Positions 3,627 through 41,076 of a stretch of 64,000 nucleotides of DNA are shown here, one piece after another. A program made the position numbers and the translations under genes. The notes under the pieces were generated by a model, which made no database searches, had not been told where the DNA came from, and saw nothing but the letters and a program-made list of their open reading frames with translations. Every line of letters starts with the position of its first letter. Position 1 is the first letter of the stretch. Origin of the DNA: a virus; IMG/VR virus record IMGVR_UViG_3300017565_000003; one strand, given 5' to 3'.

Positions 3627-5015
3627 TTATTTATATAAGAAACTAAATATTTCGTCAAGCGATTTTTCTCTTAAGTCAGAAGGGTAGATGACTAGATAAC
3701 TCAAGTCTGCTAAATCAAGCATATGTATTTTATCATTTAAATCTTTTTTATATTTTTCTCTAATAAAGTCATCTTTATTTTTATTAACCTTTGAATAATC
3801 TAACATTCCTGCAACTTCTATATAGTAAAGCTTATTGTAGTGATTAATTACGTAATCACAATCCTTTAATCCTTCATAGCAATCAATGAAGTCACTGTAT
3901 AAGATATTGCGGTTATAATTGACTTTTTTATCTCTTAAATAATTGCTTACTTCAAATTCAAATTTACTTGTTACTATTTCTCCATCTTCGTATTCATAAA
4001 CCATACCCATTCCTGCTTTATTACACTTAAATCCTATTGATTTTATATAATCGCACAGAGTCATATTTAATTCTTTTTTAAACCATCGGTCATATGTTCC
4101 AGCAGTCAAACACCGTTCACTTACATTGACATCTTCTCTTGAGATAATATCTCTGTTTTCAGTTTCTTTTATATATAAACACAATTTGTCAATATCTTCT
4201 TTTAATTCTTCAATAGATCTAGTCTTGTCTTTCATTATTTCTTGATTTATTTCAAATCCTAAATCCATAAGCATGTTGTTGAAATTTCCCCAGTGATTAT
4301 AAATAGTAGCAATGCCAATCTCATCATCTTTTGGAAATTCAAAGTCTGATTTTTTAAGATTTCTATTAACTTCCTTATGTTTCTTTAAAATGGCTTTAAT
4401 TGTATATTCTTTTGAAACTTTATAGCTAGGTTTTAGTCCTAAGTAGTTAATGAATTGGTTGTAGTCATTAACATTTTCATCAGGACAATATCTTACAAAC
4501 CATCTTCCATTTGGTAATCCATATGTATTATTTATTAAATCATACGAAGTTAAAGCTCTACCAATTTCTTTGCTAATATCTATAAATCTTTTACAATATG
4601 AATCATAGTCATTTTTATCCAATATGTGATTTCTGCCATATTTACTGTAAAACTCTTTAAACTTATCGCCACAAATAATTTTCAATCTGTCCCAAGTTGG
4701 CAGATTGCTGTCTCTTGCACAATCCTCAGCAACGGGATATTTACCGTTTTCTTCAAAATATTTCTCCCATAGTAAACATAGATCATTATAAGTGAAATGT
4801 GCAAACGGAGACTGCTTGTAGATAACCGTAAAACCTTTTCCTTCTAGAAATTCCCGATATCCTGAATATCCATTTTCTCTAAAAATAATTCTCAATGTGG
4901 TTGACGAAGGTAGGGCATTATTATTTTTAATTTGCTCTTGACTTGGTATTTTATTTAATTCTGTTGAAAACTCAATTAATTTTTCACATATTTCTATAAA
5001 GTTATATTCTCTCAC
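3627..5015 (-). CDS. Repeat-containing free-standing endonuclease (PD-(D/E)xK C-terminus)
   Basis: HWGNFNNML-type repeats; C-terminus TSKFE...CDYVI...YIEVAG; same architecture as 1182..2714. Confidence 0.7.
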   Translation of the reverse strand: MREYNFIEICEKLIEFSTELNKIPSQEQIKNNNALPSSTTLRIIFRENGYSGYREFLEGKGFTVIYKQSPFAHFTYNDLCLLWEKYFEENGKYPVAEDCARDSNLPTWDRLKIICGDKFKEFYSKYGRNHILDKNDYDSYCKRFIDISKEIGRALTSYDLINNTYGLPNGRWFVRYCPDENVNDYNQFINYLGLKPSYKVSKEYTIKAILKKHKEVNRNLKKSDFEFPKDDEIGIATIYNHWGNFNNMLMDLGFEINQEIMKDKTRSIEELKEDIDKLCLYIKETENRDIISREDVNVSERCLTAGTYDRWFKKELNMTLCDYIKSIGFKCNKAGMGMVYEYEDGEIVTSKFEFEVSNYLRDKKVNYNRNILYSDFIDCYEGLKDCDYVINHYNKLYYIEVAGMLDYSKVNKNKDDFIREKYKKDLNDKIHMLDLADLSYLVIYPSDLREKSLDEIFSFLYK

Positions 5016-5090: not shown

Positions 5091-6080
5091 TTACCAATCT
5101 AAATCATCTAACTCATCTTCAAAATCACGTAAATCATATATAGCCGTGGTTTCAAGGCTCTCGTGTTGTGCAAATTTCTTACTAACTATTTCAGGCTTCA
5201 TTCCCGATGATAATAATCTTGTAACCAATGATGACTTAAAACTGTGAGCATTGATACGTCTGCCTACAATATCAGACAATACCTCGTCACAGAAATAACT
5301 AGCCCATGATTCCGACATTTGTTTTGGCTCTCCACCGTACATAGTAGTGAAAACATATTCATGTTCATATCCACGAACTTCTACCCATTGCTTCATGTAT
5401 TTAATCGCTTCAAGGTTAAGATAATAGTTTACTTTCTTTCCCTCACCTTTACCTTTTGCAGTTATTAAATTTGATTTGACATAATTTTTACCATTTGCAT
5501 CTTGGTAAATTGCTGATGTTTTAATTTGAATTAACTCTGCTTTTCTGGCTCCAACATTAAATGCTGTAGCTAACCACGCCATACCAAGATAGTTTTTATC
5601 TTTTTCAAGCGTACTCATCATTAACTCATATTCATCTACGGTAATTTCTTTCTTTTGATAAGTTTGTGTTTTGGGGATTGAAGGAAGGCCGCGTGTAAAG
5701 TTTCGAAACTTTTCAAATCTTTTGTCGTCATCAGCAACGATATTCTCTATATAATTACAAAGACTAGAAACTGTTGCTTTCTTTAGTCCGATTGCACTTG
5801 AAGACATATTTCTATTTTTCAAGAAACTTATGTATCTAAGAAAATCACGCTTACTAATTTCATATAAAGGCTTATCATTCAAAGAGTTATGTACCCACCA
5901 GAAAAATTGCCTCAACGAACTGGTATACTGTTTCCTTGATTTAGGTCTAAAAGAATTTGAATCAAGATATTCGGACAGTAAGTCTCTGTGTTCAGCATCA
6001 ACTTTATTCCACATTTCCTCAGTAACCTCTGGTAATCTTAGGGCACGTTCACGGAGCATGTTCTTTTCAATTTTACTCAA
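5091..6080 (-). CDS. Tyrosine recombinase, YomM-like
   Basis: SAM-like N-terminus; GARKAEL (R), KGKG (K), HSFK (HxxR variant), QHES (H), TAIYD (Y). Confidence 0.85.
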   Translation of the reverse strand: MSKIEKNMLRERALRLPEVTEEMWNKVDAEHRDLLSEYLDSNSFRPKSRKQYTSSLRQFFWWVHNSLNDKPLYEISKRDFLRYISFLKNRNMSSSAIGLKKATVSSLCNYIENIVADDDKRFEKFRNFTRGLPSIPKTQTYQKKEITVDEYELMMSTLEKDKNYLGMAWLATAFNVGARKAELIQIKTSAIYQDANGKNYVKSNLITAKGKGEGKKVNYYLNLEAIKYMKQWVEVRGYEHEYVFTTMYGGEPKQMSESWASYFCDEVLSDIVGRRINAHSFKSSLVTRLLSSGMKPEIVSKKFAQHESLETTAIYDLRDFEDELDDLDW

Positions 6081-6544: not shown

Positions 6545-7057
6545 TTAGACTTCTGGAATTTGCTTCTGTTTACCAAGAATAATTTCACGATTCTCTAAAG
6601 GTAGCTCCTGAATTTCTTTCTGAACTCGCTTAATCTCATTACTCAACTTATCATCTAATTCAGCAATCTCATAAATTTTGTCATATAAATAGGACATTGA
6701 TTCTTGAGGAAATTGCTTTAAAATAAATTCAGCAACTTTACTGTTTAACACTTCTTTAATTTCTTTATAGATGTAATCTGCTTTTTTACTAGTAGTCATG
6801 CTAACATCAGTAAAGTGCTTGATTACGTAATAACCGATTATATCTGATCCAGCAATCTCAATTTCCACTTTTTCTTTTTTGGCTAAACTTAGGAAAGAGT
6901 AGAAATCATCCCTTAAATCTGCAACTTTTTGCGGAGAGAAAAAGGGATAAATTTTAATTTCATGCGGTTCACCATTTACATCAATATCAATGGAAACCGA
7001 TTCTTTATAACGCTTATTGTCATTTTTAATATGACTAATAGTTAATTTCTTACTCAA
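6545..7057 (-). CDS. Putative tail assembly chaperone (YomO-like)
   Basis: Position downstream of tail tube; size. Confidence 0.45.
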   Translation of the reverse strand: MSKKLTISHIKNDNKRYKESVSIDIDVNGEPHEIKIYPFFSPQKVADLRDDFYSFLSLAKKEKVEIEIAGSDIIGYYVIKHFTDVSMTTSKKADYIYKEIKEVLNSKVAEFILKQFPQESMSYLYDKIYEIAELDDKLSNEIKRVQKEIQELPLENREIILGKQKQIPEV

Positions 7058-7211
7058 ATGTATCTCCTCCTTTTATTCCATGAAACAAGTCTTTTATTGA
7101 AATTTTTTTTAAAAAAAATAGGAGCAGGGGATTAACCTACTCTTGGGTATATTGTTTATTATTTAGTTGCGCATTCTAAATAATAAAAGGAGACACAGAC
7201 GGTCTCCACTA

Positions 7212-7460
7212 TTACTTTAACGGTAATAATTTGATTGAATGAACATCTTCAATCTTACCAGTATATTCAACTATAATTGTACGTCCTTTAGTAAAATGTG
7301 CTTTTTGTTCAATTGTTAGTGATTTATCAAAGTAAGCACGAATTCGCCATCCCTGAATATTAACAATTACACCATTTTCTTCTACTTCATGAACATCTAA
7401 TTCAATTTTATTTACCACAGGTTCTTTTGTAGTAGTTGTAGCCACTTTCCACACCTCCAA
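7212..7460 (-). CDS. Hypothetical phage protein
   Basis: 82-aa ORF in tail module. Confidence 0.5.
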   Translation of the reverse strand: MEVWKVATTTTKEPVVNKIELDVHEVEENGVIVNIQGWRIRAYFDKSLTIEQKAHFTKGRTIIVEYTGKIEDVHSIKLLPLK

Positions 7461-7503
7461 AATAGAGAAGGGGAGAGTGTCCCCTAATTGTTAAGTTTAC
7501 TTA

Positions 7504-8289
7504 TTAAACGATTGCTGAATCATCATAAACCACTAGTTCCCACATGTCTGTGTTTACTGGTGACTTTAGAATTTCCATGTTTAAGTCTAGTGCAGCAGGA
7601 TCTCCGTCTGCTGAGAATGAAAGGTTAAAGTTATCTTCGAACTTAGCATTTGGTACACGTAATTGTCCTTCAAATGCTTCTTTAGTAAACTCATCAACAA
7701 CTAGAACATCCATTACAACACGGAATGATTTACCGAATTGATCAGATGTAACTTTGATTGTTTTAGCATCAGTAGCAGTGTTTGCTTGGTAGTAAACTCT
7801 GAATTGAGTTCCATTTGCTACAGCAGTATTGAAAGTTAAATCTTTACCAGTTACTGAATATTCTTTTGGATTAGAAGCAGGAGTTCCAAGAGTGAATTCT
7901 TCACCATTAGTACCGTCTGGATTTAATTTAAATACAGATACGATTGCACCAGAAGGAGTTTTACTTAGAGTCACTTTATTGGAAGTTACAGATTGCACTT
8001 CATGTAAATCTACTTTTTTAATACCTGCAACAAGGTCGTTACCTGTTAACATTGCAACTGCTTCGTTATCAAAAATAGCGTCTTGTAAAGTTAAACGAGC
8101 TTGACGGTTAGATGAGAAACCGATTAAACGTGCATTACCACGACCACCTTGAGCGTAAACTGTTTCACCAGTTGTTTCTACTCCAGATGTTTTTAAAGTT
8201 GTTAGTGTAACAATTGCTTTGCCAGTTGATAAGTCATAGAATGAAACTTCACCAGCTTCACGAATTGCCCAACGATTAGGTGTAGCCAT
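7504..8289 (-). CDS. Major tail tube protein (YomU-like)
   Basis: Likely start MATPNRW at 8289 (GGAGG RBS); VYAQGGRGNARL and FSADGDPA motifs; highly expressed codon usage. Confidence 0.75.
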   Translation of the reverse strand: MATPNRWAIREAGEVSFYDLSTGKAIVTLTTLKTSGVETTGETVYAQGGRGNARLIGFSSNRQARLTLQDAIFDNEAVAMLTGNDLVAGIKKVDLHEVQSVTSNKVTLSKTPSGAIVSVFKLNPDGTNGEEFTLGTPASNPKEYSVTGKDLTFNTAVANGTQFRVYYQANTATDAKTIKVTSDQFGKSFRVVMDVLVVDEFTKEAFEGQLRVPNAKFEDNFNLSFSADGDPAALDLNMEILKSPVNTDMWELVVYDDSAIV

Positions 8290-26317: not shown

Positions 26318-27121
26318 TTAACTTCTTTTTTTGTTGTATTTCTTATATTTTTCGAGCTTCTTATCTCTACTACATGCCTCACAAAAGTTTTGTCGATTGC
26401 TTTTTGCTTTTATAGGTATCCTACAACTTTCGCATTCTTTCACTCTATTTTCTCCACAATATAAATCATAGAAGAATCCAATTACACTGTAATCATTTAC
26501 CGAAAAAACAATGTCATCATCTTCTTCAATACCATACATAAACAGTAATTTGATTTTACCATTTCCAGTAATTTCCACAATTCCTTTTTCATCCAAGACT
26601 CGAATAAGATCATGAATATTCTTTACAATAGATTTCTTTGTCTTATTGAAAGTAATCTTCGATGTTGCAACTAACTCTCTGTAATTTTTATGACCCCCAA
26701 AGTTAAAGTCACTACTTTTAATCTCACCATTTTTAATCTTTCCGAAATCTTTATTCAACTTTGTTAAAGCTAACAATGTGAATACGACTCGCTTATAATC
26801 ATGGGGAATATCCATTGCTTCTATAATACTTAATTCATTCTTTATGATATCCACTTTATCTATTTGTATCAGTTTGTTCTTTGGATTTAAGCTATGTTTA
26901 ACCGCAGTATTGATTATTTTGAAGTGAATTGCTTGATTAAAGCCTTTAAGATTGCTTTTGCAAAAATCAATTAGCACTTGTTTAATCTCATCCTCATTCT
27001 TACCTAAAGATTTATAATACTTAGCAATAATATTTAATTCAGTTGCAATGTATTTTGAAGTAAATCCATTTGAAATAATCTCCTCAGCATAATCCATTTC
27101 TTTGTAATGAAATTTATTCAT
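26318..27121 (-). CDS. Conserved phage protein coupled to the RNA polymerase gene, C-terminal zinc ribbon
   Basis: Overlaps YonO stop; CESC...CEAC. Confidence 0.6.
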   Translation of the reverse strand: MNKFHYKEMDYAEEIISNGFTSKYIATELNIIAKYYKSLGKNEDEIKQVLIDFCKSNLKGFNQAIHFKIINTAVKHSLNPKNKLIQIDKVDIIKNELSIIEAMDIPHDYKRVVFTLLALTKLNKDFGKIKNGEIKSSDFNFGGHKNYRELVATSKITFNKTKKSIVKNIHDLIRVLDEKGIVEITGNGKIKLLFMYGIEEDDDIVFSVNDYSVIGFFYDLYCGENRVKECESCRIPIKAKSNRQNFCEACSRDKKLEKYKKYNKKRS

Positions 27122-29903
27122 TAATTAGCGACACCTCTTTTAATGTGTATTTTGTATCCAAATATGTATATTCTCCATTTTTGCAAGGAATAGGGAGTGT
27201 TATTTTGTTTATTTTACTTTTAATATTTTCAACTATGTATTCACCATACAATTTCCAAAGTAGATCCTTATTTGATTCAGTTTTTTCAATGTAAAACATA
27301 TGTATTAAATAATCCACAAGTTCATCAATATTTGAACAAACCTTCAATAAAGACTCGTTTAAATTATCATAAACAATTTCTACATTTGCTTCAATCTCAT
27401 CGTCAATGTCATTTTTAGCAGACAACGAATTTGAAGTCGTAGAGGCTAATGAACTGCTATGTGCTTTAAAATCTTGGTAAGACTTTTTAACTTTGCTATA
27501 TTTTTTCTCGTCAATTGAAAGGGAAGGGTTACTCATTAAACTCTTATAATAGACAACTTCTTCATCTTGTTTAACAATGTTTCTTATACCAAAATCAATT
27601 GATTCTATATATCTACAAATCTTATTCATCACACAATTGCTATTAATGACCGGGGAATATTTATTGAATGTATTTATAAAGTCTAATTGCTCAGGTGTTT
27701 TCCTGTTTAATTTCTTTAAATCCTCAATTCCTACTCCAAACAACTGACGACAAGTGGCATCTTGATTATTGTAATAGTTCTTATATCTTCTTTTAGTTCC
27801 TTTATATAAATATGTAAAGAAATAAGGATGTTTATCAAGAAGGGTTTTATTTAAGGACTCCTTTTGCTGCTTAATTTTCTCTGAATCCCCAACTTCATCG
27901 ATCTTGTTATAATTCATCCATATCTTAGGGATTGATTTAACTTTCCTTCCAATTTTAGCTTTATCTATCTGAGCTGATTGTAATTTTGTACACATTTTTA
28001 TGCGATTCATAGTTGTTGTATATTCCTCACTTGTTTCATCTAGTTCAGCAAGAAGGGCATAACCACTTGTGCTTTTATTGGTAATCTGACCAATCTCAGA
28101 ACCAAAAGAATGTATATCAGCATTATAAAGCTTTCTTTCAGTCAGTTTTGTTTTATCAGATTTAGGTGGGATATAAGCAATAGGTAACTCATCCCTATAT
28201 ACACCTTTAATTATTGACTCATCACTTGTAGTAGCAATAATATCCATATCAAAATCACTACCAGCCCAATTCATTGTTTCATGACCGTGAACATTAACAA
28301 TTATCCCTGTGTTATTATATTTATACCATTTGTCCAACTCTTCATTTTGTTTCAAGTCTAATACAACATGTTCACTTCGGTAGGTGAGGGGAGCCCTCAT
28401 GGAATCAACTGTTTTTACACCTTTTTTATTCCAGTAATTAGAGTAGTATTCCTTTTTACCTAGTAAACCAGTGACTTCTAAACCACAAACATGCTGCATC
28501 ATAGCAAAAGGGTCTGAAACGATTACCTGGAAGTTCCCTTCCACTAAAATTTGTCCAAGACACCCGTTCTTAATTTTCTTTTTTACTAAATCATAAATCT
28601 TTCGCTTAATCCATTTATCATGAATAAGATTATGATCCAACATTAAAGCTTTAACCCAATGATTATCACTATTTTCTATGTATGAAGTAATCTTATCTTC
28701 GTCAATTTCTGTTCCAAGTAAGAAGAGGAGGGTGTAATGGATGTCTTTTGATGTCACACCACTAATCCAATCGACAAACTTACTACAAACTTTTTCAATA
28801 TTCCCCTCTAGCCTCAACGTCTGTAGAAATTGGTAGTTCATCTTCAAAATATCTTTATCTTTCTTGGGACTAATAAGTGAAACTCCCCATTGTAGTTGAT
28901 TCTTTTCACAATTTTCTTGATAAACCTCAAGACTAGGGAATGAATCCCAAAGTTTAAATTGGCTTTCAGAAATTATTACATCAGTGTTTAGTAGGTTTGC
29001 CAATTTTGGTTCACCGTTCTCATCTTTATATGATGTTTTAATCATGTAGTCACCATTGTTTATTTCTCTACAGAAGGCTTTTATATCAAATGTTGAAAGC
29101 ATTCCTTTTATGTAATTTTGTCGTATACACCACTGAGCAGGGACATAATCCAATCCGAGTTCATCTGCCCATTGTCTAGCCTTTTCAATACTAATAATAC
29201 CTTGACCATCAAAACGATTAAACAACTCAGTTATAGTTTTAACTTCAATTTCATCATCTTCGTTTAAATCTTTCTCGGTTACAAAATTAACTTTAACTTC
29301 TGTTTCACTTTCGTAATCTGGAACTAAGCAAAATCTAGGAGTAGATACTACGGATGTAGAACTCGTAATAAGACCTTTGTAAGCATTGAACTTGGAAGGA
29401 ACTAGTTTTTTACTTTTATCCCTTCCGTTATCAAATATCTCATCTAGTTTATCGGCCATTTCTGTCTCGCAGTACAAAACGGTCGATGACCTCGCTTGGC
29501 CGGCAGAAGAAGAGAACCTTCTAAAAATTTTTCCATTTAAGCTTAATTTATTTTTAAATAAATATCTGTAATGACTCTTGTTTTCTATTACAATACTAAT
29601 AACTTCGGGAACAAAGAGAATGTTATCAATTTTACGCTGAGTTTCAATAATTTTACTTGAATTCTCTTTTGAATGTTCTTGTTTCTTTAGCTTTTCAAGT
29701 TCATGTTTAAGTTTGTCTAATAACTGATAATCAACTTCTTCACCTTTAACGAATCTAATTGATCTAAGCAATTGACTATCAAACATTGATATAACTTCTT
29801 TATTTTCTTTTGCTTCTTCAAAAGTTAAATCTTGAATATCGTAATTGAATTCAGCCAATCGAGAAGACTTGAATTTGTATGTATAGAATATTTGTTTCTG
29901 CAA
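27114..29903 (-). CDS. yonO: YonO-like single-subunit double-psi-beta-barrel RNA polymerase
   Basis: 929 aa; SSAGQAR, FDGQG, RAPLT, catalytic GSDFDMD, IDKAK motifs; upstream of late genes as in SPbeta. Confidence 0.8.
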   Translation of the reverse strand: MQKQIFYTYKFKSSRLAEFNYDIQDLTFEEAKENKEVISMFDSQLLRSIRFVKGEEVDYQLLDKLKHELEKLKKQEHSKENSSKIIETQRKIDNILFVPEVISIVIENKSHYRYLFKNKLSLNGKIFRRFSSSAGQARSSTVLYCETEMADKLDEIFDNGRDKSKKLVPSKFNAYKGLITSSTSVVSTPRFCLVPDYESETEVKVNFVTEKDLNEDDEIEVKTITELFNRFDGQGIISIEKARQWADELGLDYVPAQWCIRQNYIKGMLSTFDIKAFCREINNGDYMIKTSYKDENGEPKLANLLNTDVIISESQFKLWDSFPSLEVYQENCEKNQLQWGVSLISPKKDKDILKMNYQFLQTLRLEGNIEKVCSKFVDWISGVTSKDIHYTLLFLLGTEIDEDKITSYIENSDNHWVKALMLDHNLIHDKWIKRKIYDLVKKKIKNGCLGQILVEGNFQVIVSDPFAMMQHVCGLEVTGLLGKKEYYSNYWNKKGVKTVDSMRAPLTYRSEHVVLDLKQNEELDKWYKYNNTGIIVNVHGHETMNWAGSDFDMDIIATTSDESIIKGVYRDELPIAYIPPKSDKTKLTERKLYNADIHSFGSEIGQITNKSTSGYALLAELDETSEEYTTTMNRIKMCTKLQSAQIDKAKIGRKVKSIPKIWMNYNKIDEVGDSEKIKQQKESLNKTLLDKHPYFFTYLYKGTKRRYKNYYNNQDATCRQLFGVGIEDLKKLNRKTPEQLDFINTFNKYSPVINSNCVMNKICRYIESIDFGIRNIVKQDEEVVYYKSLMSNPSLSIDEKKYSKVKKSYQDFKAHSSSLASTTSNSLSAKNDIDDEIEANVEIVYDNLNESLLKVCSNIDELVDYLIHMFYIEKTESNKDLLWKLYGEYIVENIKSKINKITLPIPCKNGEYTYLDTKYTLKEVSLINE

Positions 29904-31487: not shown

Positions 31488-31516
31488 ATTATAATAGATA
31501 AATTTATTTATGTAAA
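31488..31516 (-). promoter_or_regulatory. sigmaA promoter with operator-like spacer
   Basis: TTTACA-17 bp-TATAAT on minus strand; spacer contains ATAAATTTATC. Confidence 0.6.
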
Positions 31517-31792: not shown

Positions 31793-31878
31793 GATTCCAC
31801 CTCCTAGTTAACAAATTACAATATAATAGGAAAATTTTCAACATTATAAAATTTATTTAAACAATTTCATTAATATAA

Positions 31879-31982: not shown

Positions 31983-32264
31983 ATGAACGACTATTTTTCC
32001 TACATCTTATCCAATTTATCTCTCAACGAAATGAAAGTTCTAGGAATCCTCTCAGATAATCAAGCAAACATGGTGTTTAAGGCCATGAAAAAGAAAACAA
32101 TCCAAGACTTATCACAACTATCTACAGCTAAATTACGTAAATCATTGGATCGTCTTGAAGCAAATAGATTCATTGACTTTGTGACTAGCGAAAAGGAGCA
32201 CAAAATTTACATTACTGACTATGGGCAAGTTGCATTAAATCAATCATTGAAGGAGGAATTTTAA
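31983..32264 (+). CDS. tubR: TubR-like winged-helix centromere-binding protein
   Basis: Small wHTH (LRKSLDRLE...IYITDYG) 1 bp upstream of tubulin-like gene. Confidence 0.65.
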   Translation: MNDYFSYILSNLSLNEMKVLGILSDNQANMVFKAMKKKTIQDLSQLSTAKLRKSLDRLEANRFIDFVTSEKEHKIYITDYGQVALNQSLKEEF

Positions 32265-32265
32265 T

Positions 32266-33369
32266 ATGTTTTTAGGAATTATCGGAATTGGAGCTGCTGG
32301 AGGTAACGTGGCAGACGAAGCAGCATTAAGAGGTATTCCAAGTGTAGCAATTAACTTTTCTAAACAGGACTTAGACTCACTTATGCATGTAGAAGAAGAA
32401 AATAAGCTTCATTTCGTAGGCTCAGAAGGAATTGGAAAGGTTAGAGATAATGCAATTATGCTTATGAGAAACAATTGGGAATTAGCAGTTAACTTTATCA
32501 AAACTAAAATGTCAGCACCTTCTATAGAAGTAATCTTAGTTTGCTTTTCTACAGCAGGTGGGAGCGGGGGAGGGAGTAGTCCTGTACTATTAGAAATACT
32601 TCAACAAGAGTTTCCTGATAAGGTCTTTGTCGGTGTACCCATTCTCCCTTCGAGAAATGAGGTAATAATTAACCAAATCAATTGTTTGGAGACAATGAGC
32701 GAACTGTCTAATCAAGATATAGCAATATTCCCAATTGACAATGAAAAAGTAAGAACAACCCATGAACAATTCTCAAAAAACAAGTTATACAACTTTGCTA
32801 ATACACAATTTATAGAAATATTATCAAAAATTATCTCTTATACAGGTAAATACTCCAAACTTGGCGTTTTAGATCAAAAAGACCTCTTACAGCTTTTCAG
32901 TCAGCCTGGTGTTTCAGTGATATCTAGGCTTACAATCAATGAAATCACTAATGCGAAACAAATAAACGAATACATCCAACGGTCATGGAAGAAGTCTATA
33001 TTTGCACCAATTGACTATACACAAGTAATCAGAGCTGGAATCATTTCAGATGGGACTGAACAATTAATTGAAAATATTAACCACGAGGAGTTGTTCAAAG
33101 CCTTCAAGAATGGGATGCCAGTGGATCTCTTTGAGGGCACATTTCTCGAATCTGATGGTCTTGTACTGTCTATTCTCAGTGGACTCCCTTGGATTAATGA
33201 ACGCTTGTCAGAGATAGAGGATATTATCAGTAACGGTAGGGTTGACCTTGAAATTACAGCTAAAACTTTTACCCCTAAGACAAACTATAAAAACTTTAGA
33301 CAAAAGCCTGTTCAAAAGACACCTACTAGTGGCAATGCTTTGGATATCCTAAAGAAATACCAGAGGTAG
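32266..33369 (+). CDS. tubZ: Tubulin/FtsZ-family GTPase, TubZ-like
   Basis: GIGAAGGN, GSEGIGK, AGGSGGG tubulin signature, IDN, LDQKD; basic C-terminal tail. Confidence 0.8.
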   Translation: MFLGIIGIGAAGGNVADEAALRGIPSVAINFSKQDLDSLMHVEEENKLHFVGSEGIGKVRDNAIMLMRNNWELAVNFIKTKMSAPSIEVILVCFSTAGGSGGGSSPVLLEILQQEFPDKVFVGVPILPSRNEVIINQINCLETMSELSNQDIAIFPIDNEKVRTTHEQFSKNKLYNFANTQFIEILSKIISYTGKYSKLGVLDQKDLLQLFSQPGVSVISRLTINEITNAKQINEYIQRSWKKSIFAPIDYTQVIRAGIISDGTEQLIENINHEELFKAFKNGMPVDLFEGTFLESDGLVLSILSGLPWINERLSEIEDIISNGRVDLEITAKTFTPKTNYKNFRQKPVQKTPTSGNALDILKKYQR

Positions 33370-33397: not shown

Positions 33398-33492
33398 TTA
33401 CCCGTGTAGTTACCCTATAGCATGTTTTATATTACCGATCATCTTACCGCAGCTAATTACCGCCCTTGGGTAACTTACCGAGGGTTTGGTAA
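33398..33492 (+). repeat. TTACC(C/G) short-repeat cluster, candidate tubC centromere
   Basis: TTACC at 33398, 33410, 33432, 33444, 33457, 33475; inverted GGTAA at 33469, 33488. Confidence 0.55.
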
Positions 33493-33538: not shown

Positions 33539-34159
33539 TTGTTTATCAGAAAAATATTTATTAGGAGAGAAAAGATAATGAGTTATAAAATAACATCAAG
33601 ATATTTGCAGCAGGAAGCATTTAGAAATTCACCGCACAGAGGGATTGATTTTCGAATGGAAATTGGTGAGCCACTTCGAGCAATAAAGAGTGGAATTATA
33701 CATGTTCGAGATTTCGGCAATGTCAACGCAGGAAAGACAATTCTAATTGAAGCAGAAGATGGAAAGACATATATCTACGGTCATCTTTCTGAATTTGCGG
33801 TTAAAGAGGGTCAAAAAATTGAAACTGGGCAATTACTTGGCTATTCAGGGAATACAGGCCACTCAACCGGAGCACATCTTCATTTCTCTGTCCGTGAGGG
33901 GAGTAAGTATTTAGATCCGTCCCCTCATATAGAATTTATCCAAAATATGAATAATCCACAATTCCTAGCTAAAGTCCAAGCTAAAGCAGAATCCATCCAA
34001 CAATCCTCATATTCATTTGCCGATTTATTCAAAGAATCATCTAACATGTACTCTGACTTGTTCCAAAACCTAAAAATCAATTTAATTTACTTATTAAAAT
34101 CATTTGATTACGTTAGCTTCATACATTACTTCCAGAACTTGTTTCAGTTTTTCTCTTGA
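33539..34159 (+). CDS. M23-family peptidoglycan endopeptidase
   Basis: HRGID, YGHLS, GNTGHSTGAHLHF; likely start ATG 33578. Confidence 0.85.
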   Translation: MFIRKIFIRREKIMSYKITSRYLQQEAFRNSPHRGIDFRMEIGEPLRAIKSGIIHVRDFGNVNAGKTILIEAEDGKTYIYGHLSEFAVKEGQKIETGQLLGYSGNTGHSTGAHLHFSVREGSKYLDPSPHIEFIQNMNNPQFLAKVQAKAESIQQSSYSFADLFKESSNMYSDLFQNLKINLIYLLKSFDYVSFIHYFQNLFQFFS

Positions 34160-34255
34160 TAAACCAGTTTCATCCACTATACGCTGACTTAAATCCTCTA
34201 ATTTAACTTCCCATTGTGGTTTCTCATATGCTGTAAATCCAAAGTTCATTGGCAT
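34100..34255 (-). CDS. Small helical protein (51 aa, not in ORF track)
   Basis: GGAG RBS; MPMNFGFTAYEKPQWEVKLEDLSQRIVDETGLSREKLKQVLEVMYEANVIK. Confidence 0.5.
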   Translation of the reverse strand: MPMNFGFTAYEKPQWEVKLEDLSQRIVDETGLSREKLKQVLEVMYEANVIK

Positions 34256-34421
34256 AGAATCAACTCCAATTCAATATATTTTAAGCATCTCGACCTTTAT
34301 CTGCTGTATCACGTATATAAGAGTCTACATCTTTTTTGTCTGAGTTGTCTTTTTTATATAGTTGCATCGACTATTTCTCCTTTTGTTGTGTTGTTAATAA
34401 TATATTGTCCCTTGAAAGAAG

Positions 34422-34877
34422 GTGTTATACATGGAAGATAATTATATAGAAGTTAGAATTAGGTTCAAACAGTCAACAATTGACTCATTAGAGAAAATTG
34501 TTAAGTATTTCAACACAAGGCAAAAATTAATCAATAGTGAGCGACAAAACGACATTATTACTGTAGAAGAAATGATACGTGGTGCAGTAGTTAGAGAGAT
34601 AGAGACCATTGAAACATTTAATCATTTAATCACTTATGATGGTGATAAGTCACTAGGTCATAGAAAGTACGTATTAAAGAATAGATTAAAAGAAATATTG
34701 AAAGAAAAAGGCATGAAGCAATTGGATTTAGTTGAATTAACAGGTATTGATCGTTCGAATATGAGTTTCATAGTAAACAACCGTAATCAGCCAACAGCAG
34801 ACTTCTTATTAAGAATTTGGGTTGCTCTAGACTTTTATCCTTTGGAAAAGATTTTCTATAGGGTTGAGTCAGAGTAA
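34422..34877 (+). CDS. Regulator with C-terminal XRE HTH
   Basis: LKNRLKEILKEKGMKQLDLVELTGIDRSNMSFIVNNRNQP. Confidence 0.75.
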   Translation: MLYMEDNYIEVRIRFKQSTIDSLEKIVKYFNTRQKLINSERQNDIITVEEMIRGAVVREIETIETFNHLITYDGDKSLGHRKYVLKNRLKEILKEKGMKQLDLVELTGIDRSNMSFIVNNRNQPTADFLLRIWVALDFYPLEKIFYRVESE

Positions 34878-35013
34878 CCCTTTTTTCTTAGGTCGATTTA
34901 CAAATTACAAACTTTTTTAATTTTTGTCATAGGACAATTTTCAATCTACGTAAGATTGAGTATAGATATATTAAACCAAAACAAAAAAGAGAAATCATTA
35001 GGAGGTAATTGTT

Positions 35014-35157
35014 ATGATTGGTGCTTTACTGGCAGTGCAAACAATTTGTATAGGAGTTTCAGGATACTTAACCTATAAAACTAAAAAGAAATCTTCTAAA
35101 ATTAAACTTTCCTCGAACACTAAGGGTTATAAATACTACAAAGCAGGGGGATTTTAA
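35014..35157 (+). CDS. Small membrane peptide (47 aa, not in ORF track)
   Basis: AGGAGG RBS; MIGALLAVQTICIGVSGYLTY followed by Lys-rich tail. Confidence 0.55.
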   Translation: MIGALLAVQTICIGVSGYLTYKTKKKSSKIKLSSNTKGYKYYKAGGF

Positions 35158-35159
35158 CA

Positions 35160-35345
35160 ATGGAAGCTACTGCATTAGCATTATCAATATTGAAGATTAC
35201 TACATTCTTAGCAGTTACAACTGGTTTAATTACAGGAGTTTACTACTTTAATACAGCAGAATTTAATGGTAAGAAGAAGGGAGGACGTATTGGTGAGTCA
35301 GATGAAATTAAATCTCTCCGTGAGAAACTTGGATCAAGAAGTTAA
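35160..35345 (+). CDS. Small membrane protein
   Basis: N-terminal TM segment, basic tail. Confidence 0.55.
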   Translation: MEATALALSILKITTFLAVTTGLITGVYYFNTAEFNGKKKGGRIGESDEIKSLREKLGSRS

Positions 35346-35832
35346 TTATATTAATCCACATAAAGAAATTAATCTTAATGAGCAAGTTAAAAACCAATCT
35401 TTTTTAATAAGAACTATAGAAAAGGAGGTGAAAAGCTTACCAAAAAAGAAGAAAAAAGTACTTCTAACAATAGTAAAAGCAACTCTAACAGCATCAATAT
35501 CAAGTTTAATACTAGTGAATCCAGTATTCGCAGCAACTCCTCTAGCAGTTCCAGTAACAACAGGTTCAGCAATCATGCCAACAGACATAATGAAAATAGG
35601 AATGTACTTAATAGGGATATGCGCAACGGTGTCAACCATTCTAGCGATGATCTTAATGCAACTAGCCGGGGGATACAGAATGCTAAGAAAGTCAAAGGAA
35701 GCAACTTTGTGGATGAACGATATTCTCAAGGGGTATGCTGTCACAATCATAGCGCCAATTCTAATAATAACGATAGCATTCCTAGCATACCTATTGTTCG
35801 GAGAATCACAATTCTTCATCAAACCCTTCTAA
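35266..35832 (+). CDS. VirB2/TrbC pilin-like membrane protein
   Basis: Basic stretch + signal-like VNPVFAA, then two TM helices separated by GYRMLRKSKEATLWMNDILKGY; likely start ATG 35302. Confidence 0.55.
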   Translation: MVRRREDVLVSQMKLNLSVRNLDQEVNYINPHKEINLNEQVKNQSFLIRTIEKEVKSLPKKKKKVLLTIVKATLTASISSLILVNPVFAATPLAVPVTTGSAIMPTDIMKIGMYLIGICATVSTILAMILMQLAGGYRMLRKSKEATLWMNDILKGYAVTIIAPILIITIAFLAYLLFGESQFFIKPF

Positions 35833-37013
35833 GCACAATAAAGAAAATGACAATTCCATTTGGAGTAGCATCAACAGCTTTCCTATTCACATCGATTAAT
35901 AAGGCTAGGGCAGCATCAATTGGTGAAATCATTACACAAAAAAGAGGTATCTTATTTAACAAAAAAGTCATTGAGGGTGGTGGTTCATGGGAGGGAACAA
36001 AGGAATTCTTCGAGGTTTGGGGTCAAATAGGGGACATTCTAACCGCAATAATTGACTGGTTATATAAATTACCTGAAAATCTTCCACAATATTCAGTTGA
36101 TCTACTATCTAAAATCTACGAATTATTAACTGTAACTGTTCTACACACACCACTTTTCTTATTCAACAATTCATTTATTAAAGACACATCATTAGTTTTT
36201 GCAGGAGTTTCAATTCTAATTGTAACAATCCTTACAATGATTGAAGGTATTAAGAAGATGCTTAAAAAGAAAAATACAGACATTAAGCAAATAGTGAAGA
36301 GATACTCTCTGTCAATCATTGGAGCTGGATTTGCACCTTTCTTATTTGAAAAATCATTTGAATTAATAAATCAACTAACCAATGCAATATCTAAAATAGG
36401 AGTGAGTGAAATATCTAACTTTAAATTATTTAGCAAAGTACAAATACCACTTACAAATATAAGCTTCTTAGATACAATCCTACTTCTAGGTTTTGATGTA
36501 GTTGTTATTGCATTATTAATTCCAATCATATTGCAAACAGGTAGACGTTATTGGGATTTAATGTGTCTGTCAGCATTAACACCACTTAGTTTAACTGCCT
36601 GGATATTTGATGACTATAAACATTATTTTAGTAAATGGTGGTCAAATGTAAAACTATTAGCACAAACTCAACTAATCTATGCAATTTACATCTGTCTAAT
36701 GGGAGTATTTATTTTTGGAACTGCAAACATTGTTACTGGCGCAGGGTTAATCGCCAAATTCCTTGTGATCGTAGGCGGCCTCGCTAGAATGACAAATGTC
36801 CCCCAATTTGTAAAATCTAGAGTGGATACAGGAAATGACATTGAAGACTCGTGGCTTGGAGCATTGAAAAGCTATAAGAATATTTATGATACTTTCACAT
36901 TTAAAAAGTTAAAAACTACTGCATTTCTTACTAAAAAGAGCGAAGAAAACCTAAAAAACATCCAAAAACTACGCAAAAAACATGGTCAACGCTATGTTAA
37001 AGGCTTATCTTAA
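35619..37013 (+). CDS. VirB6/TrbL-like polytopic membrane protein
   Basis: Multiple TM helices; RRYWDL...LTPL...W...YFSKWW...Q motif typical of Gram-positive VirB6-like proteins; true start uncertain (possibly 35847). Confidence 0.55.
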   Translation: MRNGVNHSSDDLNATSRGIQNAKKVKGSNFVDERYSQGVCCHNHSANSNNNDSIPSIPIVRRITILHQTLLSTIKKMTIPFGVASTAFLFTSINKARAASIGEIITQKRGILFNKKVIEGGGSWEGTKEFFEVWGQIGDILTAIIDWLYKLPENLPQYSVDLLSKIYELLTVTVLHTPLFLFNNSFIKDTSLVFAGVSILIVTILTMIEGIKKMLKKKNTDIKQIVKRYSLSIIGAGFAPFLFEKSFELINQLTNAISKIGVSEISNFKLFSKVQIPLTNISFLDTILLLGFDVVVIALLIPIILQTGRRYWDLMCLSALTPLSLTAWIFDDYKHYFSKWWSNVKLLAQTQLIYAIYICLMGVFIFGTANIVTGAGLIAKFLVIVGGLARMTNVPQFVKSRVDTGNDIEDSWLGALKSYKNIYDTFTFKKLKTTAFLTKKSEENLKNIQKLRKKHGQRYVKGLS

Positions 37014-37024
37014 GGAGTGATTCT

Positions 37025-37210
37025 ATGCTAACCAAAGAATATATCCTATTAAACTGGGAGCAAGATTTCAATGAAGTTATCTACTTTACTATGACAACTG
37101 AAGGCGATTCAATCATATACGATATTGAAATTGACCAATTTTACTTTAATAATTACAAAAACGAAATATCATTCAGAGAAGCTTGTGCATTATTGGAATT
37201 AACAGCTTAA
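37025..37210 (+). CDS. Small acidic hypothetical protein
   Basis: AAGGAGTG RBS. Confidence 0.55.
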   Translation: MLTKEYILLNWEQDFNEVIYFTMTTEGDSIIYDIEIDQFYFNNYKNEISFREACALLELTA

Positions 37211-37235
37211 TAAACTTAAAAGGGAGCGATTTATT

Positions 37236-37373
37236 ATGACAACTGAACAAAAATTACGCATGGAATTAGCTGAAGAGGTAATGGAGTTAATGTATGAAGG
37301 ATCTGTTTTTCTAACTGAAGAAGGATTGCAATATATTCTCAACATTAAAAACGGTAAAGAGGAGATGGTGTAA
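37236..37373 (+). CDS. Small hypothetical protein (45 aa, not in ORF track)
   Basis: AGGGAG RBS; MTTEQKLRMELAEEVMEL... Confidence 0.5.
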   Translation: MTTEQKLRMELAEEVMELMYEGSVFLTEEGLQYILNIKNGKEEMV

Positions 37374-37486
37374 TGGGTATCCTGGAAACTGTCATCTTGT
37401 TAAACACTGGAATTGTAATTGCAAACACAATTATCTTATTCATCAACACGAAAACAATCACTAAGGTTATAGATGAATATGCTTAA
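37373..37486 (+). CDS. Small hydrophobic peptide coupled to FtsK (37 aa, not in ORF track)
   Basis: TAATG overlap, GAGGAG RBS; MGILETVILLNTGIVIANTIILFINTK... Confidence 0.5.
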   Translation: MGILETVILLNTGIVIANTIILFINTKTITKVIDEYA

Positions 37487-39749
37487 TGTATTCAAAAGTA
37501 AACTAAATAAAACAATACAATATAATTCATCTAATATTATCCGACTGGTTGACTCATTTAATGAAGATGTCACTCTTCCTCTCTTAACATCTGATTTGTT
37601 AGGAGAGGGAGTATTCTCCTTTGAGATTGTTGTAAATGACACTGATGCAGAAAATTACATTGTCACTCCACCATTTTTTCGTGAGCAGATAGGAGCAGAA
37701 TGTTATAGAGATTTCTCATATCTAAACAACAGTTTAAATGAGTTAAATTGCTACTCTATAGAACTGACTAACCCATCTTTCTTACCAATATTTACTGAAA
37801 GTGAAGGTTCACTTTTACAAGACTTATCTCTTATGTGCCAAAAAGGGAGTGAACTATTCATACAGTTGCTTATAACTCTACGTCAAGACAACTGGAAGGA
37901 AGGGTATGTTGACCAATATCAAGAGTATTTATACGGTAATGATTATCCTAGTGCCAAACGAGCACAAAGAGCAATGCAACGATCCATATTGAATGTGTTG
38001 AATAAGATTAGTGGATTTAGCACAGAGAGAAAAGAGGTAAAGGATATTAGCAATAAGATATTACAAGATGGATATAGATTTGAACTGAGATTGATTACTA
38101 ATGCGGAAGATGCTAATACATTTGAATCTGAATTAACCGGAGTGCTAAAGGAATACGACTTTTTTAACAGCTTAAGATTCTTTGGGGATAAGAATAAGAA
38201 GCAGTTCGTGGATAATTTCTTAAATAGAAAATTCTCGCCTGTATCAAAAGAGCAGTTATTATGTGAATCTGAGTTACTAAGCATTCTAAATGGTGAACAA
38301 GTATTCACAGAATCGAAAACAATCACAGAAAAACTAGAAGACATGAGAAAATCCGTTACAAAGGTGAGTAATTTTAATTTACTGCCATTAGGTGAGAAGA
38401 AGGATAGGGATTTAGATCATGAAATTATTGCACAAATACCTGGAGCACTAAAGAAAGCTAGAGCAACTAAAACGGATAAAATTGAAATCACTGATGTAGA
38501 ATTAGGTGCAACAGTTCAACGTATTACATTTAAAATACCAAATGGTGAGGTTTATTCGAATATCAAAGGGAAAATAGAGGACATTCAATCGTCATTAGGT
38601 GCATCACTTAGTATTATTCAAGGTCAAGAAGCAGAAACAGTTACATTTCTAATACCTTGTAGTCAACGTGAAATAATTTATCTTAAAGAAGTGTTAACTA
38701 GCGAAGAGTTTCAACAGTTTGCAAATGAACATGAACTCCCATTTGTATGTGGTATAGATATGAATAATAATCCTGTATTTAAATGCTTAACAGAAGCCCC
38801 TCATCTATTGGTGGCTGGAGCTACAAACTCAGGGAAATCAGTATTCCTCAATGCATTGCTTATCACATTAATACTACTAAAGAGTCCAAATGAGTTGAGA
38901 TTATTCCTTATTGATCCTAAGTATGTTGAGTTTACAGACTATGAAGGAATGTCACATGTTGAAAAGTTGACATCTGATATGAAGAGAGCAGCAGGAATAC
39001 TTGAATCATTGGTCAATGAAATGGAAAACAGATACCAACTATTTGCAAAATATAAAGGAGTTAAAAAGCTCACTCAATACAACTCGAAAGCTGATAAAAA
39101 ACTTCCCTATATTGTATGTGCAATAGACGAATACAATGATTTAGTCATGGTTCATAAAGAAGTTGAACAATACATTGAACGCTTAGGACAAAAAGCAAGG
39201 GGAGCCGGTATTCATCTAATTATAGCTACACAAAGACCTGATAAAGATGTAATGAGTGGAGTCATCAAGTCTAATCTACCTTCAAGGATCTCATTTTCAC
39301 TAAGTAATAATAATGAATATAGGACAGTGTTCGGAGTAGGAATCCCATATAAGAATCTATTAGGAATGGGAGATGGGGTAGTTAAGTATATGGGGCAGAC
39401 TGAGGATTTTATAAGGTTCCAAGCCCCCGTCATTACATTGGATAGTGAAGAGGAAGAGAGAACGTTTGATAATATTAAGAAATTATATAAAGGTGAGCAG
39501 ATAGATGAGTTAGATTTAGCGGAAGTTGAAGTGGAAAGTGATTTAGACAAGTTAAAGAGGATAATTTCGTCAACGGGTGAATGTAGAATTGGGGAATTAC
39601 GTAAAGAAATGGGAATAAGGATTAACACTGTGCAAGATTTAATGCAGCAATTAGTTGAGGAAGGCTGGTTAGAGAAACCAGAAAGCAAGAATAAAGGATA
39701 TCAGTTGATAGCTGATGAGGATGAGTTGGAGAAGTGGAGGTCACACTAG
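37473..39749 (+). CDS. FtsK/SpoIIIE-family DNA translocase with C-terminal winged helix
   Basis: PHLLVAGATNSGKS (Walker A), IDPK, IVCAIDE (Walker B), ARGAGIH, ATQRP, LLGMGDG; gamma-like wHTH at C-terminus. Confidence 0.9.
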   Translation: MNMLNVFKSKLNKTIQYNSSNIIRLVDSFNEDVTLPLLTSDLLGEGVFSFEIVVNDTDAENYIVTPPFFREQIGAECYRDFSYLNNSLNELNCYSIELTNPSFLPIFTESEGSLLQDLSLMCQKGSELFIQLLITLRQDNWKEGYVDQYQEYLYGNDYPSAKRAQRAMQRSILNVLNKISGFSTERKEVKDISNKILQDGYRFELRLITNAEDANTFESELTGVLKEYDFFNSLRFFGDKNKKQFVDNFLNRKFSPVSKEQLLCESELLSILNGEQVFTESKTITEKLEDMRKSVTKVSNFNLLPLGEKKDRDLDHEIIAQIPGALKKARATKTDKIEITDVELGATVQRITFKIPNGEVYSNIKGKIEDIQSSLGASLSIIQGQEAETVTFLIPCSQREIIYLKEVLTSEEFQQFANEHELPFVCGIDMNNNPVFKCLTEAPHLLVAGATNSGKSVFLNALLITLILLKSPNELRLFLIDPKYVEFTDYEGMSHVEKLTSDMKRAAGILESLVNEMENRYQLFAKYKGVKKLTQYNSKADKKLPYIVCAIDEYNDLVMVHKEVEQYIERLGQKARGAGIHLIIATQRPDKDVMSGVIKSNLPSRISFSLSNNNEYRTVFGVGIPYKNLLGMGDGVVKYMGQTEDFIRFQAPVITLDSEEEERTFDNIKKLYKGEQIDELDLAEVEVESDLDKLKRIISSTGECRIGELRKEMGIRINTVQDLMQQLVEEGWLEKPESKNKGYQLIADEDELEKWRSH

Positions 39750-39913
39750 GTTGTGGCCTTTTAAACTGCCTAGAATCCATTTTAAGGCTGTTCACGCTTT
39801 GATATGGACGAGATAGATGTGGGTTATGATAAATTACATTAGGAGAGGGTAAAGTTACTAGAAAACGATTTTAAGAGGCTGATAATAAAATAATAGATAA
39901 ATTTATTTATTTA

Positions 39914-40879: not shown

Positions 40880-41002
40880 AAATACTGGTTCTTTTATATC
40901 TTTTAATATCTTTTATCTATAATCTATATAGAGTGGATTTCATGTTAGATAAAATACAGTTACATCTTAAATGAAATACAGTATCATCCTCAATGAAATA
41001 CA
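40880..41002 (+). repeat. Iteron-like 22-bp direct repeats plus TCTTTTA repeats (candidate origin)
   Basis: AAATACA at 40952, 40974, 40996 (period 22); three TCTTTTA upstream. Confidence 0.6.
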
Positions 41003-41076
41003 CTTAGGTAGAAACGTTGATTTAATAGGGTTTAATTATACAGGTAAATTTAACTAAAAGGAGAATTTGTTAAACA

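Follow-up and report, generated by a model that had tools for sequence, protein, structure and literature searches.

What would a phage do with genes resembling parts of a type IV secretion system (T4SS), together with a DNA motor of the FtsK type, set directly after a tubulin-like partition pair? This question is raised by a stretch of 64 kb of the virus record IMGVR_UViG_3300017565_000003, hereafter called the window; all positions refer to it, and the element was examined over these 64 kb alone. Its terminase and structural genes, together with the origin of its nearest named proteins, which come from Metabacillus (86% identity), identify the element at the sequence level as an SPbeta-like phage or prophage of spore-forming Bacillaceae. 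As the initial annotation of the window had described, a co-oriented run of genes for an M23 peptidase, an XRE regulator, small membrane peptides, VirB2-like and VirB6-like proteins and an FtsK motor directly follows tubR and tubZ; all of these genes were found, on the plus strand. The best reading of this block is that it codes for a putative T4SS-derived conduit for double-stranded DNA (dsDNA), which would operate without a relaxase and with an FtsK pump in place of the usual ATPases, VirB4 and VirD4.

An FtsK-type motor with a VirB4-like head

The last gene of the block (37473-39749, plus strand) codes for a soluble motor of 758 residues that belongs to the FtsK/SpoIIIE type (Pfam FtsK_SpoIIIE, PF01580, E 1.3e-45, 156 bits against a cut-off of 24; PHROG 3551, E 2e-218). 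It comprises a VirB4-N-terminal-like domain (residues 19-274), an alpha/beta motor domain (~295-660) and a winged helix (~690-758), and its alignment with the FtsK structure 2ius of the Protein Data Bank (PDB; E 3e-55) starts at residue 295. The Walker A, Walker B and conserved arginine positions (G449, G454, K455, S456, D552, E553 and R576) are invariant in 20 homologues. The protein had been described as lacking transmembrane segments and as ending in a winged helix. Both features are borne out: no membrane anchor was detected, as no 19-residue window reaches a hydropathy of 1.6, and the C-terminal 70 residues form a winged helix. The epithet 'gamma-like' that had been given to this helix suits its position and not its sequence, since a profile of 20 sequences matches DtxR/MntR/MarR domains (E 1e-4).

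The part of the protein that precedes the motor domain provides the link with T4SSs. The first 275 residues were modelled as a soluble alpha/beta fold (pLDDT 87, pTM 0.83). The best structural match of this model was the N-terminal domain of TrwK/VirB4 of plasmid R388 (Z 13.0, root-mean-square deviation (rmsd) 3.3 Å; 214 aligned residues, over VirB4 positions 37-397), followed by a chain of the ESX-3 complex (Z 9.7) and by unrelated folds (Z up to 6.9). Similarly, the top eleven rows of a Foldseek search were all VirB4-containing R388 entries. At the sequence level, PF03135, which we take to be the Pfam model of the N-terminal part of VirB4, finds nothing in this domain. A profile of the domain run against 1.84 billion representatives retrieved 114 proteins, nearly all of the same 700-800-residue design, and no bridge to true VirB4 proteins.

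In solved T4SS structures, it is the N-terminal domain of VirB4 that anchors this ATPase to VirB3 and to the inner-membrane complex. By analogy, we infer that the soluble motor may dock in VirB4 fashion on a platform made of the VirB6-like protein and small peptides. Judging from the model, the machine appears to retain the docking module of VirB4 although it is devoid of a VirB4 gene. The statement in the initial annotation that no relaxase or VirB4 is visible in the window is therefore correct for genes and has to be qualified for the fold of the motor's N-terminal domain. A scan of the 40 larger open reading frames (ORFs) of the window found no member of the relaxase families, no match to PF03135 and none over the cut-off to PF12846.

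The VirB6-like and VirB2-like membrane proteins

The second T4SS-like component is a polytopic membrane protein with a predicted VirB6/TrbL fold, the core of which has 388 residues (35847-37013, plus strand; PHROG 3750, E 7.7e-80). It has no Pfam match, TrbL included. Its structure model rests on 42 homologues, and the quality is moderate (pLDDT 70). In VIA-align comparisons, it is closest to TrwI/VirB6 of R388 (7o3v_F; Z 10.4, rmsd 5.6 Å, 225 residues aligned), then to DotA (Z 8.5), the next unrelated chain being at 5.9. The top seven rows of Foldseek are VirB6-containing R388 stalk entries, with weak E-values, and the top clusters in the ESM Atlas are TrbL/VirB6 (TM-scores of 0.52-0.57). For a helical membrane protein, these matches support a VirB6 relationship at the level of the fold and are not proof of membership.

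The preceding gene (35302-35832, plus strand) codes for a TrbC/VirB2-like protein of 176 residues (PHROG 3528, E 2.7e-29). The protein itself has no Pfam match; it shares 31% identity (E 4e-17) with a Niallia plasmid protein that passes the Pfam TrbC/VirB2 model (31 bits, cut-off 27.9). A profile of the family compared with PDB sequences yielded nothing meaningful. The alignment shows a cytoplasmic head of ~45 residues, a Lys-rich stretch and a signal-like helix ending in AxA, followed by two hydrophobic helices linked by a basic loop. This layout, with a leader and two helices, would fit a pilin-like protein.

A conserved open frame links the two membrane-protein genes

We compared 37 loci from annotated phages and plasmids, one Bacillus chromosome, two GTDB genomes and 30 IMG/VR contigs. 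In all of them, the VirB6-like gene occupies the -1 frame relative to the VirB2-like gene, and this frame is free of stop codons for 139-164 codons upstream, nearly the whole length of the VirB2-like gene. In the window, the open frame, which is proposed to code for a frameshift-made N-terminal extension, covers positions 35391-35846 (plus strand); it overlaps the VirB2-like gene and continues into that of the VirB6-like protein. Synonymous-codon shuffles that keep the protein and its codon usage served as the null model. The probability of such an open frame in the shuffles was 0.0003-0.12 per locus. The ~105 codons located 5' of the sole conserved in-frame start contain no stop in any of 21 non-redundant loci, where 1.1-5.6 would be expected in each, and the combined probability of this stop-free stretch (Fisher) is 4e-16.

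Usable starts are scarce in the VirB6 frame. In 18 of the 37 loci, it has no ATG, GTG or TTG between -60 and +100 nt of the upstream stop. Where starts are present, they lack a Shine-Dalgarno sequence (~+1 to -3 kcal/mol, vs -5 to -14 for most motor-gene starts), and the same is true of ATG 35847 of the window. Internal initiation was considered, as many loci share a start at -123; this start stems from a conserved Trp codon, has middling Shine-Dalgarno strength and was rejected because it leaves ~105 further open codons upstream unexplained. A programmed -1 frameshift that makes the VirB6-like extension is thus predicted and likely, because the frame is kept open upstream, usually without a usable start. 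In the simplest reading of these sequences, the shift would join the cytoplasmic head of the VirB2-like protein, by means of a hydrophilic linker, to the VirB6-like protein.

The shift site itself can be given as candidates. In the window, they are T_TTT_TTA (35400-35406) and A_AAA_AAG (35442-35448), both in the 0 frame of the plus strand, and the Shine-Dalgarno-like AAGGAGGTG (35422-35430). A_AAA_AAG sits 11 nt after AAGGAGGTG, which is the arrangement of dnaX, and the T-run and the A-run of this candidate region are able to pair. In all loci, the -1 frame opens 2-13 codons before a conserved in-frame T_TTT, which is followed seven codons later by a conserved GAG GTG (GGAGGTG, Shine-Dalgarno-like and against the local codon bias) and then by a Lys run. 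T_TTT and the Shine-Dalgarno-like GAG GTG are the only elements common to the loci, and they stand in an order at odds with the dnaX layout. A dnaX-type layout was thus discarded as the general mechanism: it fits the window and fails in the Bastille-type loci.

The overlap also has consequences for annotation. Database proteins of 490-611 residues might be taken for natural fusions of the two products; they are gene calls of the extended -1 frame. In the phage Bastille (L001, NC_018856.1), the VirB6-like gene (6671-7891) is annotated only from locus position 7247 (gp105, 214 residues). Its homology begins near 6803, where there is no start codon, which fits the frameshift reading. The VirB6-like gene is probably cut short or missed in many phage records.

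The module occurs in lytic phages, prophages and megaplasmids

Megablast with the 7-kb block gave no match in collections of phages and plasmids, and relatives were detectable at the protein level only. Full-length homologues of the motor, with 37-40% identity, are present in ~160 Bacillus phages, most of them strictly lytic Bastillevirinae (Bastille, Goe3 and SBSphiJ are examples). The polytopic VirB6-like protein was found in 160 Bacillus phage records and in 12 large plasmids typed as non-mobilizable. The carriers of the module thus include lytic Bastillevirinae, SPbeta-like prophages and Bacillus megaplasmids, and the idea that it is special to one phage, or to temperate phages, had to be abandoned.

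The order of the genes is the same in all 37 loci: a partition pair, an optional M23 gene, an optional XRE gene, and the VirB2-like, VirB6-like and FtsK genes. The anatomy first noticed beside tubRZ, a T4SS-like set with FtsK and with neither relaxase nor VirB4, extends to 37 loci and to four complete relatives devoid of relaxase and VirB4 genes. The association with tubZ proved to be one with partition systems. A partition pair adjoins the module in every locus; it is TubR/TubZ in part of the SPbeta-like loci and the actin-like ALP/Alp7A with a small partner in lytic myoviruses. As two unrelated filament systems occupy the same place beside the same module, this argues for a functional link rather than for chance adjacency.

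According to the initial annotation, a complete T4SS and a relaxase located elsewhere on the element would have spoken against its reading. None was found in the complete phage Goe3 or in three SPbeta-like proviruses that are 96-100% complete. In these genomes, there is no PF12846 (AAA_10) match over the cut-off and no match to PF03135 (CagE/VirB4), nor is there one to PF13814 (Replic_Relax), PF03432 (Relaxase) and PF02486 (Rep_trans), the three relaxase models that the search covered. Weak matches to VirB4 models in the four complete relatives are located inside the motor gene only. On the Bacillus cereus plasmid pBFR_2, genes of the VirB4-like and Replic_Relax types are present at a distance of 50-80 kb from the module.

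The named hosts are all endospore formers (Bacillus, Metabacillus, Priestia, Fictibacillus, Peribacillus and Niallia). One 250-kb plasmid (L038, CP053689.1) is labelled Arthrobacter citreus NEB 577. The stretch fetched from it has 32.6% G+C and harbours, ~550 nt beyond the motor gene, a gene for a small acid-soluble spore protein (SASP); a single small ORF separates the two. The label of a high-G+C actinobacterium looks wrong for this replicon. The element in the window has its own alpha/beta-type SASP gene (60833-61067, minus strand), as the initial annotation had stated (Pfam SASP, E 1.6e-13). The C-terminal part of this SASP carries on in another frame that overlaps the first (ORFs 60870-61067 and 60833-60970), and therefore the sequence indicates either that the gene is frameshifted or that the assembly has an insertion or deletion there.

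Other genes and regulatory elements of the block

The partition pair consists of a TubR-like small DNA-binding protein (31983-32264, plus strand), which has weak winged-helix matches and is encoded directly 5' of tubZ, and of the tubulin-like GTPase TubZ (32266-33369, plus strand; Pfam Tubulin, E 1.9e-14, with 54.8 bits where the cut-off is 33). A TubR homologue is encoded at the same position in six other loci (L005, L007, L010, L011, L015 and L017). The interval from tubZ to the M23 gene contains a repeat array (33398-33492) with the unit TTACC/GGTAA, in eight copies in 95 bp, compared with 2.4 per kb over the whole window. A similar array follows tubZ in the same loci except L007, where the unit is AGTTCC. 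The array is a candidate centromere (tubC) or a candidate loading site for the winged helix of the motor.

The next gene (33578-34159, plus strand) codes for a peptidoglycan endopeptidase of the M23 (LytM) type (Pfam Peptidase_M23, E 3.5e-27; PHROG 7767, E 3.7e-56). It starts at ATG 33578, behind AGGAGAG, and not at TTG 33539, and the metal-binding motifs HxxxD and HxH of its catalytic site are intact in the translation. It has counterparts in 26 of the 37 loci. The XRE-family regulator, with a C-terminal helix-turn-helix, is encoded at 34431-34877 (plus strand; HTH_26, E 6.7e-8; HTH_3, E 7.7e-6), and a terminator-like hairpin is present at the 3' end of its gene (34860-34881). The XRE gene is kept at this position in SPbeta-like prophages and plasmids and is missing from Bastillevirinae; its product is probably the module's own repressor.

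Between the M23 and XRE genes, a 51-residue ORF on the minus strand (34100-34255) has a GGAG ribosome-binding site and shares 60 nt with the 3' end of the M23 gene. It matches no family, and the locus L005 has a minus-strand gene of 50 residues at the same place. The product of the ORF and the XRE regulator may together form a small divergent switch. A 75-residue ORF (34214-34441) lacks a ribosome-binding site and probably does not represent a gene.

Three small membrane peptides, each with one hydrophobic segment and a good ribosome-binding site, are encoded on the plus strand. The first has 47 residues (35014-35157; hydrophobic segment at residues 1-19; ribosome-binding site AGGAGG) and homologues in L006 and L012. 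The second, of 61 residues (35160-35345; hydrophobic segment at residues 6-24), has homologues in L005 and L010. In all SPbeta-type loci, the operon opens with a small membrane ORF. The third peptide, of 37 residues (37373-37486; hydrophobic segment at residues 6-24), is encoded by a gene whose 3' end overlaps the start of the FtsK gene. Membrane ORFs of 37-45 residues are found at the same place in Goe3, Bastille, L005 and L006, and by its position alone the peptide can be called VirB3-like. Between the VirB6-like gene and that of the 37-residue peptide are two small soluble ORFs (37025-37210 and 37236-37373, plus strand) with good ribosome-binding sites. They are partly duplicated, with an 18-nt repeat at 37085 and 37230; they have no family match in Pfam or PHROG and are not kept there in other loci.

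A conserved two-part, promoter-like motif (34927-34956, plus strand) stands in front of the membrane-protein/FtsK operon. It consists of kmATAgGACAAt, a fixed gap and (c/a)ATAyAnT; most SPbeta-type loci have it 60-90 nt ahead of their first small ORF, and it does not fit the sigma-A consensus. A box ATAGGAnAATTTTCAA, with ACAAATTACAA just 5', occurs before both tubR (31826-31841) and the membrane-protein/FtsK operon (34929-34944), which hints at co-regulation. As a promoter box shared by tubR and the module, ATAGGAnAATTTTCAA was not retained: it is borderline in comparison with shuffles and is not kept in six other TubZ-type loci.

Possible working of the module

We propose the following working for the putative conduit. 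The operon would be kept off by its own XRE regulator. Once it is on, the VirB2-like and VirB6-fold proteins and the small peptides would build a membrane platform, the VirB6-fold protein probably being produced in a longer form by ribosomes that shift from the VirB2-like gene into the -1 frame. The soluble motor would dock on this platform via its VirB4-like N-terminal domain, and its C-terminal winged helix would select the element's own DNA, brought to the site by filaments of TubZ/TubR (the actin-like ParM/ParR in lytic phages). The M23 peptidase would open the thin septal wall, and intact dsDNA would be pumped across the septum. As this would occur without nicking, no relaxase would be needed. 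The likeliest septum would be that between the mother cell and the forespore, and the resulting spore, a 'virospore', would inherit the phage or plasmid.

The sporulation septum is thus our first choice for the site of action, as a tentative proposal for a role in spore inheritance. It is ranked first on circumstantial grounds: the identifiable hosts all form endospores, a SASP gene adjoins the module on one plasmid, only those of Bacillus among related myoviruses have the motor, and the entrapment of phage genomes in forespores is documented. The constant place of the module next to a filament partition system is likewise circumstantial support, for spore delivery or for transfer without virions. 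In published surveys, the motor is found only in the Bacillus-infecting branch of these myoviruses, and phage genes similar to those of sigma-F/G are located in the same 20-60 kb accessory region (PMC4528723, PMC3601020). The translocation of lytic-phage genomes into forespores and their entrapment there are established, the motor being unknown (PMC12991052). The full picture of a filament-fed hybrid machine, with VirB2- and VirB6-like components, a wall peptidase and an FtsK pump whose VirB4-like head serves for docking, in which the frameshift sets the ratio of pilin-like to channel protein, is a more doubtful proposition.

Several observations weigh against such a conduit or against its place at the sporulation septum. 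The M23 peptidase has no signal peptide, hydrophobic or membrane segment or export signal, and its gene is missing in 11 of the 37 loci, including both plasmids with an annotated region and the Bastille-type phages. The assignment of the VirB2-like protein is weak, as only two of 24 family members reach the Pfam TrbC model (E 0.01). The C-terminus of the motor has no PF09397 match, and its 20-sequence profile retrieved no FtsK gamma chain; with a winged helix that has no sequence likeness to gamma, directional reading of the DNA is only assumed. The two-part motif is only reminiscent of a sporulation promoter, with a possible resemblance to the mother-cell sigma-E consensus. The limitation to spore formers could reflect mere descent within Bacillaceae. 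In public runs, DNA of the element is present in soil metagenomes only, and no RNA run is listed. Finally, deletion of the related operon of phage 0305phi8-36, which includes a VirB6 homologue, a VirD4-like ATPase and an actin-like gene, had no laboratory phenotype (PMC3357382). This absence of a phenotype neither supports nor locates a role.

An alternative is that the module mediates a conjugation-like spread of dsDNA across the cross-wall to a sister vegetative cell in a chain or a biofilm, as TraB and Spd do in Streptomyces. TraB is an FtsK-like hexameric motor with a C-terminal winged helix that moves dsDNA without a relaxase and is accompanied by small membrane proteins. The module follows the same design, and its anatomy would serve this purpose equally well; the counterpart of clt would be the TTACC array, as a candidate only. 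Furthermore, Pathria et al. (2012) proposed virion-free DNA translocation, with spread in biofilms, for the related 'DNA translocation operon' of the Bacillus thuringiensis phage 0305phi8-36 (PMC3357382), and the transfer of a linear plasmid of enterococci relies on VirB4-, VirD4- and VirB6-like genes alone (PMC13492992). However, the plasmids that bear the module are typed as non-mobilizable, and the separate VirB4-like and Replic_Relax genes of pBFR_2 would be redundant if the module were itself a transfer system. The block contains no adhesin or aggregation gene, and the benefit is unclear for a lytic phage that kills its cell. The likeness to TraB is also limited: TraB has no VirB4-like head and no VirB2 or VirB6 partners, and the motor scores 49 bits with the NCBIfam model plasmid_TraB (NF041214), for which the cut-off is 800. 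On balance, we regard spread between vegetative cells as rather unlikely.

The constant presence of a partition system next to the module, here together with a plasmid-like replicon, could also indicate an aid to segregation within the cell. A motor similar to SftA or FtsK would then act at the division septum to clear or resolve copies of a large episome, with the membrane proteins as tethers and no exit of DNA. The motor is soluble like SftA, a tyrosine recombinase gene is present in the window (5091-6080), and megaplasmids carry the module. In contrast, the VirB2-like and VirB6-fold partners, the VirB4-like docking domain and the wall hydrolase remain unexplained by such a role, and strictly lytic phages with no episomal life have the module as well. 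We consider this explanation improbable too.

A device for protein export or envelope functions (secretion of the M23 peptidase, superinfection exclusion or help in genome entry), with the ATPase acting like EssC/EccC in type VII secretion, is very unlikely: the motor does match EssC/EccC models (E 3e-27), the ESX-3 chain is the second-best structural match of its N-terminal domain and the M23 peptidase lacks an export signal, but the FtsK matches are far stronger (E 9e-59 and 3e-55), there is a single ATPase domain instead of the several of EssC, the motor ends in a winged helix of a DNA-binding type, no gene for a WXG-like substrate is among the ORFs listed for the block and the plasmid versions do without the M23 peptidase.

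Comparison with known systems

A putative conduit of this composition resembles several known systems without coinciding with any of them. The operon of 0305phi8-36 is one of them: its orf203 product, a VirB6 homologue, has 25.8% identity (E 3e-14) with the VirB6-like protein of the window, and the operon also includes a conjugation-type ATPase devoid of a membrane segment and an actin-like gene. Yet it has a MobC/Replic_Relax-type relaxase and an ATPase of the VirD4/AAA_10 type, whereas the module in the window has an FtsK/SpoIIIE motor with a winged helix, and complete relatives of this module have no relaxase. A VirB2-like gene, a frameshift and a VirB4-like docking domain were not reported for that operon (PMC3357382). 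The 'FtsK/SpoIIIE homologue' of Bastille-like phages (pham 473) is a direct, full-length homologue of the motor with the same gene neighbours, even though its partner is actin-like instead of tubulin-like and it has no XRE regulator. In print, this gene has been treated as a lone sporulation-related gene or as a biosafety flag (PMC4528723, PMC3601020).

The inner-membrane complex of the R388 T4SS (TrwM/VirB3, TrwK/VirB4 and TrwI/VirB6) is similar in the two folds described above and in the small membrane peptide encoded just before the ATPase gene, as VirB3 is before VirB4. It differs in that the module shows no sequence-level membership in this system, has an FtsK-type motor behind the VirB4-like head and lacks genes for VirB5, B7, B8, B9, B10, B11 and D4 as well as for a relaxase. 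SpoIIIE, which pumps DNA into the forespore, is anchored by four membrane segments and reads the chromosome with its gamma domain. SpoIIIE and SftA of Bacillus subtilis belong to the same motor family as the protein of the window. Unlike SpoIIIE, this protein has neither a membrane anchor nor, by sequence, a gamma domain, and the module brings its own membrane partners.

Thus, the parts and the general idea have precedents in the work of Pathria et al. (2012), in Streptomyces TraB and in the Bastille-like 'SpoIIIE homologue'. What we did not find in print is the unity of the module as a conserved machine of five to eight genes shared by lytic phages, prophages and plasmids, the combination of an FtsK motor with a VirB4-like head or the conserved -1 frame overlap. 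If the proposed conduit is real, it would be the first secretion-type machine whose FtsK dsDNA pump bears a VirB4 docking domain. It would bridge the transfer of single-stranded DNA by a T4SS with a relaxase and that of dsDNA by FtsK, SpoIIIE or TraB. Phage genomes entering spores are a decades-old observation with no known motor, for which the module is a concrete candidate that can be deleted. It is within reach of experiment through the easily handled Bacillus subtilis phages Goe3 and SBSphiJ. The -1 frame overlap is a probable new case of programmed frameshifting, overlooked by annotators in ~160 sequenced phages. Carriage of phages and large plasmids by spores bears on the persistence of such elements in the Bacillus cereus group and on the use of these phages in biocontrol.

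Other features of the window

The window has a G+C content of 30%. Its left half contains phage head and packaging genes on the minus strand, including those of PhoH, ClpP and the capsid, and plus-strand genes begin at 31.9 kb. The terminase shares 70% identity with that of Lysinibacillus phage LC76P1 and 42% with YonF of SPbeta. Among the structural genes, also on the minus strand, are those of two large proteins with homing-endonuclease-associated HNH repeats (1182-2714 and 3627-5015) and that of the tyrosine recombinase. A protein of 929 residues (27114-29903, minus strand), which belongs to no Pfam family, is encoded next to a CoiA-like nuclease gene. Its size and the SPbeta-like setting suggest, by analogy, a candidate single-subunit RNA polymerase of the YonO type.

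On the 3' side of the module are a Cro-like gene, a winged-helix Rep-like gene and genes for a UvrD helicase and an archaeo-eukaryotic primase (AEP), a set that would fit a plasmid-like maintenance region. Directly after the Rep-like gene (40890-41006), three 22-bp repeats and TCTTTTAATA repeats have an iteron-like arrangement. Finally, a near-palindromic motif of 19 nt, AATAGATAAATTTATTTAT, is present in 13 copies with up to three mismatches in the window, where 0.75 would be expected. Two perfect copies (31493-31511 and 39892-39910) flank the block from tubRZ to FtsK, and there are 11 weaker sites besides. The sites that we inspected, at 31.5 and 39.9 kb, are located at promoters between genes, and AATAGATAAATTTATTTAT probably serves the phage's main regulator as an operator or promoter element.

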